A stretch of 64,000 nt of DNA from Acidimicrobiia bacterium (GTDB lineage: Bacteria; Actinomycetota; Acidimicrobiia; IMCC26256; JAOSJM01), in the NCBI GenBank assembly GCA_027494165.1, contig JAOSJM010000005.1, positions 1,452,461-1,516,460 of the forward strand. The letters are read 5' to 3'. The position numbers were made by a program, and so were the translations under genes. Of this stretch, positions 5,281 through 60,469 are shown piece after piece (within the stretch, counting starts at the first letter, position 1; each line of letters starts with the position of its first letter). Under the pieces are notes generated by a model that searched no databases, was not told the DNA's origin, and saw nothing but the letters and a program-made list of their open reading frames with translations.

Positions 5281-5788
5281 GTGCGCTACGAGCTGGTCCC
5301 CGAGGAGTCCGGGGTGCACGTGCGGGCCAGCTCGAGCCTGCACGCCGTCACCATGGACGCCACGGGCCTCACCGGCTACCTCGAGGCCGAGGTCGGCGAG
5401 GACGGCGCGGTGGCGCCCGAGCCCGTCTCCGCGGGGACGTCTCGTGGTCGCCGTCGACCGGCTCCGCTCCGGCAACCCGCTCTACGACCGCGAGGGGGCG
5501 CGCCGCATCGACGCCGACCGGTTCCCCGAGATCGTGGGGGAGCTCGTGGCGATGGAGCACCTCGGCGACGGGCGTCACCGGACCACCGGCCGGCTCACCT
5601 TCCACGGCGAGACTTGCGACGTCGAGGGCGAGCTCGTGGTCCGCCGGCCCGACGCCCGCACGGTCGTCCTCGACGGGGAACAGGTCTTCGACGTGCGCGA
5701 CTGGGGGGTCCGGCCCCCGCGCGTCCTGATGCTCAGGGTCCACCCCGACGCCCGGGTGCGCGTGCACCTGGTGGCCCGCCGCCGTTGA
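5281..5788 (+). CDS. YceI-family protein, apparent +1 frameshift near 5431-5436
   Basis: The N-terminal part (VRYELVPEESGVHVRASSSLHAVTMDATGLTGYLEAEV...) is in frame 1. The C-terminal part (LVVAVDRLRSGNPLYDRE...FPEIVGEL...) is in frame 2. Removing one G from the GCGGGG run joins them cleanly. Confidence 0.65.
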
Positions 5789-6072
5789 CGGCGTCGTCGG
5801 CCCGCTGCGACCGCCCGGCACGTGGTCCGGCGATCCCGCCGCCGGGCCGGGCTCGCGCGCCGTGGGACTAGCCCGTTCGGGCTAGGAGGTTTAGGCGAAT
5901 GTGACGATCTCGCCTGGCCCGTGACGAGCCGGGCAAACGGTCGCATCGGGTCATGGCGCGCGCACCGGGAGCGCCCGAGAATGACGGCACGGTGTCGCGC
6001 GTGACGCGCGTGCCCCGAACGACGCCGGTGGGTGGAGGCCCGGGGGATCCGCCGGGCGTCGAGGACGAGACC

Positions 6073-7985
6073 ATGGCGAACAGGGCACAGATCCGGCCCG
6101 ACGACGGGCGCGCCGCGAGCGGGATCCCGCGCGCGCGCTGGTTCGCTCAGGTGCTCGACGAGCTCGCGGCCACTCCGGGCCACGAGCTGAGCGACGACCG
6201 GGTACGCCGCCTGTCGCTGCGGATCCGCGTGGTCCTCGGCTCGCTCTTCGCCGTGTCGTTCCCGCTGTTCCCGGGCCTCGTGCTCGAGGAGCGGCTCCTC
6301 CTCAGCGGAGCGGCGCTGAGCTACGTGCTCGTCGCCGTCGCGCTCGACGCCCTGGCCCGGCGCGTCCCCGGACCGCTCGCGTGGTCCGCGTGGTGGACCC
6401 GTTCATCGTCGTCGCGGTCTTCACGGTGGCGGTCCTCGTCATGCCCGGAGCCCTGACCGCGGGTCTCTTCGGGCTGGTGATCATGCTCGCCTTCTACACC
6501 TGCGTGGGCGGGCTGGCACTCGGGCTGTCGGTGGGGGCGGTCGCCGCGGCCAGCGCGCTCGTCGCCAACGCGCTGGCGCCCACCGAGGACCAGGTGCACG
6601 CGTTCGCGCTGGGACTGTTCGTCTTCCTCGTGGTCGCCCTGGCGTTCATGATCGACGCGCTCACGAGCGAGCGGAGGCGCACGGCGTCCTCCCTGGCCCG
6701 GCTCCACGAGGCTCTCCGGGCCCTGCCGTCGACGCCCGACCTGTCGGCGACACTCGACGCGCTGGCGGCCTCGGTCACCGAGACGGTCGACGCCCGTCTC
6801 GCGGGCATCCTCCTGCGCTCCGCCGGCCGGCTGGTCCTCGCCTCGCCCGGCGCGGTCACCGGGATGTGGACCCCCGAGGAGGTGGCCGCCTACACCACCG
6901 AGGAGCTGGACCTCGGCGAGGGGAGCCCGCTGGCCCTCGCCCTCGCCACCGGCCGGACCGTCGTCGTTCCCGACACCGGCGGCGACGCGCGCTTCCCGGC
7001 CTGGTCCGAGCACTGGGGGACGGCCATGGTCCGGCTCGGCTACCGGTCGATGGCCCTCGTCCCCCTCCGGGCGGACGGGCAGGTGACCGGGCTGCTCGGG
7101 GCCTGCTTCGCTCGGCGTGACGGGGTGAGCCGCGACGACGTCGCGCTGCTCGAGGCCCACGCCGAGCAGGCCTCCCTGGCCATCGCCCGAGCCCAGGCCT
7201 ACGAGCAGGAGCGAGCCGCCGCCGAGCAGCTCGCCGAGGCGGACCGGCTCAAGTCGGAGTTCCTCGCGCTGGTGTCGCACGAGCTGCGCACGCCGCTCAC
7301 GGCGGCCAAGGGGTTCGTCGACACCGTGCTCCTCCACTGGGACCGTCTCGACGAGGACCGCCGGCGGGGCCTCCTCGAGCGGGCGTCGGGGAACGCCGAC
7401 GAGCTGGCCCGCCTCATCGGCCAGCTCCTCGACTTCGCCCGGATCGAGGCCAACCGGGTGGAGATGAACCCGCAGCGGCTGCGCCTGCGGGAGCTGGCCG
7501 AGGGCGTGGTCGAGGACCTCGCCCCGGTGCTCGAGCACCACGAGGTGCTCGTGGAGGTGGACCGGGCGCTCGTGGTCGTGGTGGACCCGGAGGCCTTCGG
7601 GCACGTCCTGGTCAACCTGCTGACCAACGCCGTGAAGTACTCGCCGCCGGGCTCGTGCGTGCGCCTCGCCGCGCGCGTCGTCGACGCCGAGGTCGTGGTG
7701 TCGGTGCGCGACGAGGGGTGCGGCATCCCGCCCGAGGAGCAGGAGCGGATCTTCGAGCGCTTCTACCGGGCGCCCGAAGGGGACCGGTCCCGCCGCGGGA
7801 CCGGCATCGGGCTCGCGATCGTGCGGCGGTTCGTCGACCTGCACGGTGGCCGGGTGTGGGTCGAGAGCTCCCCCGGACACGGGTCGACCTTCTCGTTCAC
7901 CCTCCCGGCGGTCGGTCCGGAGCCGGCCCGGATCGAGACCGACCGGCTCGCGAGCGAGCCGCCGCCCCGGGCCGTCGCCTCCTGA
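6073..7985 (+). CDS. multi-TM sensor histidine kinase with GAF domain, apparent -1 frameshift near 6380
   Basis: ORF 6381-7985 carries a GAF domain, the HisKA H-box (SHELRTPL) and HATPase_c motifs (GTGIGLAIV). The upstream frame-1 ORF from ATG 6073 encodes further TM helices. Adding one G at about 6380 gives a continuous ...[22 protein letters not shown]. Confidence 0.7.
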
Positions 7986-8210
7986 ACCCGGGGTGCCCGC
8001 GGGCACCGGTCAGCGCCGGGGTCGTGTGGTCGTAGAAGCCGCGCCCGGACTTCATCCCCAGGTGGCCGGCCGCGACCATCTGGCGGAGCACGCCCTCCTG
8101 AACCCGGGGTGCCCCGCGGGCACCGGTCAGCGCCGGGTCGTGTGGTCGTAGAAGCCGCGCCCGGACTTCATCCCCAGGTGGCCGGCCGCGACCATCTGGC
8201 GGAGCAGGGG
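7982..8210. repeat. direct tandem duplication (~115 bp x2) of the 3' end of the 3-hydroxyacyl-CoA dehydrogenase gene
   Basis: The unit cctcctgaacccggggtgcc(c)gcgggcaccggtcagcgccggg(g)tcgtgtggtcgtagaagccgcgcccggacttcatccccaggtggccggccgcgaccatctggcggagca occurs twice back to back. Copy 2 is the real C-terminus of the minus-strand gene. Confidence 0.85.
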
Positions 8211-58799: not shown

Positions 58800-59689
58800 C
58801 TCCGCTCGTCGGGATCGAACGGGCCCTTCCCCATCTGCCGGCGCACGGTGACGACGGACGCCATCGTGAGGGTCCGCCGCTGCCAGTTGGCGCCGTCGAC
58901 GACCAGGGTGTGGCCGGAGATGAAACGGGCGTAGGGCGACGCCAGGAAGGTCGCCGCCCAGCCGAGCTCCCGAGGCCGTCCGGCGCGCATCGCGGGCTGC
59001 AGGGAATCCTTCTCGCTGCGGGTCCCCAGCGCACCCTGGATGTCGGTCGTCATGTCCTCGTGGGGGAAGAGGCCGGGAACCAGGCCGTTGACCTGGATCC
59101 CGTACGGGCCCCACTCCACGGCCAGGGTCTCGACGAGGTTCTTCACGCCGGCCTTGGCCGCGGCCGAATGCGCGAAGCCGGGCCCGCCGGTCCAGGCGTA
59201 CGACGCGCCGACGTTGACGATCGAGCCCGGCGTCCGCGCGGCGAGGTGGCGGCGGCCGAACTCCCGCGCGCAGAAGAACGTTCCGTTGAGCGTGATGTCC
59301 ACGACGGTGCGCCAAGCGTTCGGCGACATGTCCTCGGCGGGCACCGGGAAGTTGGCCGCCGCGTTGTTGACCAGCACGCCCGGGAGCCCGAGCGCCGCCT
59401 CGGCGGCGTCGAAGGCGGCCGCGACGTCGTCGGGCTGGCGGATGTCGCAGGTCACGGCCAGGGCACGTCGCCCCAGCTCGGCGATCGCGGCCCGGCCGGC
59501 TTCGACGTGCTCTTCCTTGCGGCTGGCGATCACCAGATCGGCTCCCAGACGGGCGAACTCGAGGGCGATCGCCTTCCCCAGGCCGGTGCCACCTCCGGTC
59601 ACGAGCACGCACATCCCGTCGAAGGTCCCCGCGGGCAGCGCGCTCTCCCCCAGGGGAGGCGCGTCGGGCAGACCGATGGGTTCGGTCAT
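58796..59689 (-). CDS. SDR-family oxidoreductase (2,4-dienoyl-CoA reductase-like)
   Basis: GMCVLVTGGGTGLGKAIA Rossmann motif, the NNAA segment, and YxxxK-like catalytic residues (SYAWTGGPGFAHSAAAKAG). Confidence 0.85.
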   Translation of the reverse strand: MTEPIGLPDAPPLGESALPAGTFDGMCVLVTGGGTGLGKAIALEFARLGADLVIASRKEEHVEAGRAAIAELGRRALAVTCDIRQPDDVAAAFDAAEAALGLPGVLVNNAAANFPVPAEDMSPNAWRTVVDITLNGTFFCAREFGRRHLAARTPGSIVNVGASYAWTGGPGFAHSAAAKAGVKNLVETLAVEWGPYGIQVNGLVPGLFPHEDMTTDIQGALGTRSEKDSLQPAMRAGRPRELGWAATFLASPYARFISGHTLVVDGANWQRRTLTMASVVTVRRQMGKGPFDPDERR

Positions 59690-59690
59690 C

Positions 59691-60469
59691 TCAGCTCCCC
59701 GTATAGCGCGGCTCGCGGTCCTCGGCCCGTGCGGCGCGGAACTCCGCGAAGTCGTCGGATTTGTTGACGAAGGTCTGGCCGATCATCTCGACGTTCATCG
59801 AGGCCCGGACCTCGGGCTCGCCGAGCTGCTGGATCACCCGGCGGGCCATCTTCACCGAGGCGAACGGGGCGGAGACGACCTGGCGGGCGATCTCCCACAC
59901 GGTGTCGTCGAGCGCCTCGGGCGCGACGAGCCGGGAGACGATCCCATGCTGGTAGGCCTCTTGGGCGTCCATCACCCGCCCCGTGAGCACGAGGTCACTC
60001 GTCACCCCGTGACCACACATCTGGAACAGCCGGCTCACGCCGCCCGTGTCGGGGATCACGCCGTGGGTGAGCTCGGGCAGCCGGAAGCGGGAGCCCTCGG
60101 CGGCGACCCGGATGTCGCAGAGCAGCGCTCGTTGGAACGAACCGCCCATCGCCCAGCCCTTGATCGCGACGATGATCGGCGCGTCGATCTCGAAGATGTG
60201 CTGGGTAGCCCGGTGACCCTGCAGCATCATCTCGTGATGGGTCCGGGGCATCGTGTGGCTGCCGATGGCGGAGACGTCTCGCCCCGAGGAGAACGACTTG
60301 CCTTCCCCCTCCAGATGACCGCCCGGATGTCCGAACGCCCCCGCAGCTCGTCGAAGATCTCGAACAACTGCTCGTCCATCTCCTCGTCGAACGCGTTGTG
60401 CTTGTCGGGGTTGTTGTTCGTGATCAAGGCGATCGGGCCGTCGCACTCGAAGAGCACCCGGTCGGTCAC
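59691..60469 (-). CDS. enoyl-CoA hydratase/isomerase (crotonase fold), apparent frameshift near 60300-60315
   Basis: The N-terminal 52 aa (MTDRVLFECDGPIALITNNNPDKHNAFDEEM..., ORF 60227-60469) continue as ...EGEGKSFSSGRDVSA...IKGWAMGGSFQRALLCDIRVAAE in ORF 59691-60446. Confidence 0.8.

Follow-up and report, generated by a model that had tools for sequence, protein, structure and literature searches.

In genome decay of the kind seen in Mycobacterium leprae, nonsense mutations, deletions and frameshifts occur as a mixture, the lesions are shared by relatives, essential genes are spared and codon bias is eroded. Pyrosequencing and Ion Torrent instruments miscall run lengths in both directions, with a frequency that rises with run length. 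For Nanopore-only (R9.4.1-generation) assemblies and metagenome-assembled genomes (MAGs), homopolymer indels that fragment gene calls have been documented, and proovframe and Homopolish are cited as correctors of such frameshifts (Sereika et al. 2022, PMC9262707). Here we analyze a stretch of 64,000 nucleotides (nt), referred to as the window, on the 1,537,480-bp contig JAOSJM010000005.1 of an Acidimicrobiia MAG, in which many genes are broken by changes of reading frame. We conclude, with a probability of roughly 0.93, that the broken genes are consensus errors of one or two bases in a long-read metagenome assembly, a matter of data quality and not of biology. The organism itself has intact genes, and the window displays an assembly artefact of a known kind that holds no new biology.

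The G+C content at third codon positions (GC3) was computed for all six frames and examined together with the translations. Same-strand frame jumps occur inside 14 genes; to either side of each junction GC3 stays within 0.93-1.0, without decay of codon bias past the shifts, and single Pfam domains are cut by the junctions. The coding junctions amount to 18 frameshifts; they are spread over 14 of the window's approximately 60 genes, and about one gene in four is affected. No nonsense lesions, large deletions or insertion sequence (IS) insertions were found in the window, where the lesions consist of 1-2-nt indels only. An earlier note, made by reading the sequence by eye, had spoken of at least 15 split genes; it named 14, and these are the 14 confirmed by GC3, translations and Pfam.

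Independent sequence from the same strain carries the argument. Small intact genes of the window, used as queries in exact-protein look-ups, retrieved 44 Logan contigs, and one further contig was reached via an intact MutY found by homology search. The 45 contigs (0.9-8.3 kb, from at least 10 runs: SRR11288141/2, SRR30756390-95, SRR25580097 and SRR25626492) align to 43.6 kb (68%) of the window with identities of 99.7-100%. Stretches without a single substitution extend over 6,668 nt (L033), 2,612 nt (L126), 1,785 nt (L128) and 1,498 nt (L014), and the contigs therefore represent the same strain rather than merely the same species. Relative to them, 23 indel events are private to the window, of which 17 are deletions and 6 insertions; 15 lie in coding and 8 in intergenic DNA. 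At every one of the 23 sites the covering Logan contigs agree with each other and all disagree with the window, and for all 15 coding events the Logan allele yields a full-length gene with complete domains. The earlier note had considered real pseudogenisation of these genes implausible and had proposed a check against independent sequence; the Logan comparison is such a check, and the intact same-strain alleles bear the judgment out.

The private substitutions of the window number only 8, of which 6 are synonymous and none is nonsense. Among the Logan contigs themselves there are 72 single-nucleotide polymorphism (SNP) positions, at each of which the window shares one allele, and no indel polymorphisms. 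The ratio of indels to substitutions is thus 23:8 for differences private to the window versus 0:72 within Logan (Fisher p = 1.5e-16). Because six of the eight private substitutions are synonymous, the lineage is under ordinary purifying selection, which is irreconcilable with 18 frameshifts. The eight intergenic events indicate that the process ignores coding. It is likewise blind to function: non-coding DNA and essential genes are both hit, the latter seen directly for pstP and mutY and by reading frames for pknB. PknB and PstP are essential in mycobacteria. The interval 47748-47880 was left out of these counts, since its sole covering contig (L028, from SRR30756393) is visibly of a different strain there; this intergenic segment differs by 8 substitutions and several multi-base gaps between near-identical flanks, and has the look of genuine divergence between strains or of a short segment that was replaced.

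The indels follow run length. The window has a G+C content of 72-78% throughout and contains 731 G/C homopolymers of 4 nt, 198 of 5 nt, 38 of 6 nt and 3 of 7 nt; these runs of at least 4 nt are spaced at about one per 66 nt and make up 6.5% of the bases. Nineteen of the 23 events fall in runs of at least 4 nt, 18 of them G/C (p = 2e-19 against 6.5% of bases). Discordant G/C runs, classed by the length of the reference allele, rise from 4/462 for 4-runs (0.9%) through 8/126 for 5-runs (6.3%) and 5/27 for 6-runs (18.5%) to 1/3 for 7-runs (33%), compared with about 3 per 19,900 (~0.015%) for runs of up to 3 nt. The sole A/T run of at least 5 nt in the covered DNA (60561-60566) is also discordant. 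Runs of 6 nt or more were shortened in six of six cases, and 4-runs were lengthened in three of four. The four events outside runs are losses of the (GC)n type (12567, 48020 and 44083) or the insertion of a foreign base (5428). It had been claimed that every junction lies in a G/C run of 4-6 bases; this holds for about 14 of the 18 coding junctions, and about four lie elsewhere. The by-eye association with runs was in any case a weak test, as such a run is found within 15 nt of 42% of positions drawn at random. At least eight intergenic indels in the window come in addition to those listed in the earlier note, an omission to be expected because the sequence was read by eye.

These observations would be explained by a MAG consensus with about one uncorrected indel of 1-2 bases per 1.9 kb. 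The errors would arise at consensus calling, where the length of short G/C homopolymers would be miscalled (long runs mostly shortened, 4-runs mostly lengthened) and bases would also be dropped in (GC)n stretches; each hit would shift the frame, and gene callers would then report truncated or split products. With G/C runs every ~66 nt in a genome given as 74% G+C, about a quarter of the window's genes would be hit as a consequence. The suspicion that the source might be a MAG was correct, as the truncated products of the window are NCBI proteins deposited for an Acidimicrobiia MAG. A contig of megabase size suggests that this MAG was assembled from long reads, probably without adequate polishing; R9-type Nanopore, CLR-type PacBio or low coverage would fit as the source, while R10.4 or HiFi would not. 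The proposal of homopolymer indel error in an assembly of long-read type is thus supported by the Logan comparison, except that four events are not in homopolymers. All sites are listed in Table 1.

Table 1. Indel sites in the window (window coordinates). Changes are written as Logan (or inferred) run length -> window run length; the last column gives the product of the Logan allele.
Locus	Position	Strand	Change in the window	Intact product in Logan
YceI-like gene (5281-5788)	5428	+	extra T inside CCC; no run-length change	168 aa; PF04264, profile 1-150/150
GAF/HisKA histidine kinase (6073-7985)	6366-6369	+	C run 5->4	637 aa
mutY	12567-12568	-	G lost from GCGCGC, non-homopolymer	256 aa (P0121); 100% identical to repaired window sequence
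pknB	14059-14130	-	net +1; interval bounded, exact position inferred	
pstP (PP2C phosphatase)	18362-18366	-	G run 6->5; G6 in 5 Logan contigs	407 aa
livMG	25824-25829	-	run 5->6, window insertion	644 aa
substrate-binding protein 1 (SBP1)	27520-27525	-	5->6, from paralog alignment; outside Logan coverage	
YtfJ-like gene, first shift	37553-37557	+	G run 6->5; Logan depth 1	165 aa; weak PF09579 match
YtfJ-like gene, second shift	37596-37600	+	G run 6->5; Logan depth 1	as above
YtfJ-like gene, third shift	37770-37774	+	G run 6->5; Logan depth 1	as above
transglutaminase-like gene	37864-37867	-	G run 5->4; Logan depth 1	234 aa; PF01841
molybdopterin (Moco) oxidoreductase	42640-42644	-	C run 4->5, window insertion; inside Fe4S4 domain	
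Moco oxidoreductase, second junction	42184-42188	-	5-base run, probably 6->5, judged from Pfam	
hypothetical membrane protein (44089-44645)	44387-44390	+	G run 5->4	185 aa
anti-sigma factor	48020	-	C lost from ACGCGCG, non-homopolymer; L028, depth 1	215 aa; zf-HC2 + RskA_C
anti-sigma factor	48144-48148	-	C run 4->5, window insertion	as above
acyl-CoA ligase	55869-55873	-	run 4->5, window insertion; 5 Logan contigs	498 aa
enoyl-CoA hydratase	60305-60309	-	C run 6->5; 5 Logan contigs	259 aa
intergenic	4635-4638	.	G run 5->4; G5 in 7/7 Logan contigs	
intergenic	44062-44065	.	G run 5->4 (Logan)	
intergenic	44081-44084 (site 44083)	.	GC dinucleotide lost from CGCGC (Logan)	
intergenic, two C runs	49097-49113	.	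5->4 at 49097, 7->5 (2 nt) at 49109; 6 Logan contigs	
intergenic	49847-49850	.	C run 5->4; 6 Logan contigs	
intergenic	49889-49891	.	G run 4->3; 5 Logan contigs	
intergenic	60561-60566	.	A run 5->6 (A5 in Logan)	

Several sites differ from where they had been placed by eye. The YceI lesion, attributed to a GGGG run near 5433, is caused by the T inserted upstream of it; the second anti-sigma site had been put near 47960, 60 nt from its actual position; and the sites in the histidine kinase, the hypothetical gene and the anti-sigma factor are real, though displaced by 10-15 nt. The YtfJ-like gene, credited with two shifts, has three in the Logan alignment. In mutY, the frame switch falls between LMDLGA and the 4Fe-4S cysteine loop, and in pstP it lies in the linker before the transmembrane (TM) segment, with loss of the TM and extracellular part. 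The shift in the transglutaminase gene removes the stop just ahead of the natural gene end. In the Moco oxidoreductase, the PF00384 match is divided between two frames, one covering profile positions 1-131 and the other 138-352, and the second junction is a return to the first frame; after a two-base repair the match is continuous over 1-352. The two intergenic C runs at 49097-49113 are directly upstream of the start of a sigma-factor gene.

In pknB the kinase domain and the half with the TM segment and PASTA domains are in frames offset by +1, according to reading frames and Pfam, so that the proposed split in the linker stands as to the two frames, while its site could only be narrowed to the interval in Table 1. 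The lower bound is set by L128, which is indel-free over 12568-14058. GC3 cannot place the junction, since third positions in this region are nearly all G or C in either frame; the 6-base run at 14068-14073 (5->6) is the strongest candidate. PknB homologs are single proteins of ~640 aa; a search with the full-length repaired PknB returned only relatives of at most 60% identity over the full length and did not place the indel, and the linker region as query hit no Logan fragment spanning the junction and returned the 333-aa NCBI protein described below.

The shift in livMG parts the start codon from a fused livM-livG gene, which has no start codon in its own frame; only the first 16 codons are frame-shifted in the window. 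The fusion (23940-25875) is one gene with BPD_transp_2 and ABC_tran domains, and its start overlaps the livH stop by 4 nt. The possibility that livM and livG are separate genes split by an error was rejected on the length of the Logan fusion and the small extent of the shifted part. Between the stop of an MMPL gene and livF, at 23029-23214, a 61-nt unit occurs in three nearly perfect copies in tandem; each copy has the hairpin ACACCCGAG...CTCGGGTGT, and Logan L001 ends within this array.

For SBP1, the one-base repair proposed in the earlier note, giving YVDTPTAKGPAWRPHV, was reproduced exactly on removing one C from the run at 27520-27525. When the DNA of the tandem paralogs is aligned, the sole 1-nt gap within conserved sequence falls on this run, and SBP1 departs from its paralog exactly at YVDTP. 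Between the paralogous genes (26875-28477 and 28578-30146), identity is 84% over 1.6 kb and reaches 96% in the last 300 nt at the 3' end. The short-read contigs are interrupted at this pair, all four of them beginning at 26927.

The 3' end of a 3-hydroxybutyryl-CoA dehydrogenase-like gene (8127-8972, minus strand) is copied, through a tandem duplication of 116/117 nt (7987-8090 and 8104-8206), into the space ahead of the convergent histidine kinase gene. Only two homopolymer indels (8112 and 8134) distinguish the copies, and Logan L007 and L008 end inside copy 1 at 8048. The duplication may be real or an assembly artefact, and it affects where the dehydrogenase gene ends.

Other features of the window include an intergenic family of seven 63-nt repeats (12134-12196, 12242-12304, four copies within 33519-33799, and 35588-35650), 62-98% identical to the reference copy, with the internal palindrome CGGGGCTGTGGACCCCG. 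The family looks like repetitive extragenic palindromic (REP) elements or miniature inverted-repeat transposable elements (MITEs), and short-read contigs break at its copies. An encapsulated-ferritin (EncFtn-like) gene followed by the gene for a family 1 encapsulin shell (Linocin_M18) occupies 31218-32401; this pair is intact and identical to Logan L126. Four tandem repeats of 126 nt (42 aa; motif GDGYWLVAxDGGVFxFGDA) at 3283-3912 reside inside a gene for a secreted protein of 445 aa (3266-4603). Homology searches place the closest relatives of the window proteins in the Acidimicrobiia, at class level with ~60% identity. A scan of GTDB species representatives with a PBP protein gave a best match of 61% amino-acid identity, and neither a finished close genome nor the MAG itself was found among these representatives.

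Several points weigh against consensus error as the source of the indels. The call of error derives from a comparison of assemblies and not from the MAG's own raw reads, and the Logan runs serve as the comparison without an established sequencing platform. The four sites at 37553-37867 and the two anti-sigma sites rest on one Logan contig, and the pknB and second Moco junctions lie outside Logan coverage and were deduced. Natural slippage rises with run length too, so that length dependence alone does not discriminate. There is also an intergenic excess that pure random error does not predict: 8 of the 23 indels fall in the 9% of bases that are intergenic within the covered parts of 3781-63685, and of the 19 run-associated events 7 are intergenic versus 17% expected from run content (p = 0.03). 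Possible causes are a partial coding-aware (protein-guided) correction, which the MAG might have undergone, clusters of runs that are prone to error (49097-49113) or real polymorphism at a few intergenic sites; with so few events no choice between them can be made.

The most direct alternative is that the frameshifts are real, with true pseudogenes produced by slippage in a hypermutator or decaying lineage, in the manner of reductive evolution. The dependence of slippage rates on homopolymer length and the restriction of the indels to the MAG assembly are compatible with it. We nevertheless consider it very unlikely. Stretches of 1.5-6.7 kb show zero substitutions against Logan and yet contain indels, and the private ratio of 23:8 stands against 0:72 in the natural variation of the population. 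The mostly synonymous private substitutions speak for purifying selection, the lesions lack the nonsense mutations, large deletions and IS insertions of decay, and GC3 is kept downstream. With pknB, pstP and mutY among the genes hit, ~14 of ~60 genes would be dead in the window and, by extrapolation, hundreds genome-wide; and the lesions are not shared, as none of the Logan contigs carries any indel allele of the window. Also very improbable is a lineage in which slippage at short G/C runs is grossly elevated, for instance because a repair function (such as a mutY-linked pathway or NucS) has been lost, and which is either in meltdown or rescued by transcriptional or translational slippage at a high rate.

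Two further explanations would assign the runs a function. Phase variation, in which the runs are contingency tracts switched by slipped-strand mispairing and the MAG has caught 'off' states, would account for most indels being changes in the length of homopolymer tracts. We hold it to be exceedingly improbable, because tract length does not vary among the Logan contigs, which come from at least 10 runs, the 'off' state is found in one assembly only, and the tracts, only 4-7 nt long, occur in intergenic DNA and in housekeeping and essential genes rather than in genes for surface or restriction-modification functions. Programmed ribosomal frameshifting or transcriptional slippage at G/C runs could in principle restore full-length proteins from shifts that are +/-1 and mostly on slippable runs; its probability is practically nil. 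In the Logan contigs of the same strain, at 99.9-100% identity, each of the covered genes occupies one frame, its homologs in other Acidimicrobiia are undivided open reading frames, and the shift site is not conserved. The shifts go in both directions, four sites are non-slippery, intergenic DNA shows the same kind of indel, and one gene of 165 aa would require three shifts.

Taking the indels as consensus errors, artefactual fragments have already entered public protein databases as real proteins. MCZ7527896.1 (window 13076-14077), a 333-aa 'PASTA domain-containing protein' at NCBI, is the C-terminal half of PknB (100% identical), and MCZ7527900.1 (window 18270-19076), a 268-aa 'Stp1/IreP family PP2C-type Ser/Thr phosphatase', is a truncated PstP. 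Roughly one gene in four in the window is mis-called, and until it is polished the MAG distorts pseudogene counts and essentiality, domain-architecture, 'novel small protein' and pangenome results. The error rates per run length given above can serve as a prior when the remainder of the genome is corrected.

Among the systems described at the outset, the window most resembles Nanopore-only assemblies of the R9.4.1 type: indels are concentrated in homopolymers and surface as frameshift errors at gene calling, the contiguity of a 1.54-Mb contig goes together with truncated proteins, substitution accuracy is high, and the errors vanish against accurate data of the short-read type. It differs from them in that its runs are short (4-7 nt), four events lie outside runs and there is a mild intergenic excess, with the platform itself only presumed. 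Bidirectional miscalls that increase with run length are shared with pyrosequencing and Ion Torrent data; such data, however, rarely yield metagenome contigs of 1.5 Mb, and their errors leave the (GC)n deletions and the T insertion unexplained. With Mycobacterium leprae the window has in common that many genes are interrupted in an actinobacterium, but it shows none of the mixed lesions, shared lesions, sparing of essential genes or erosion of codon bias that mark real decay.

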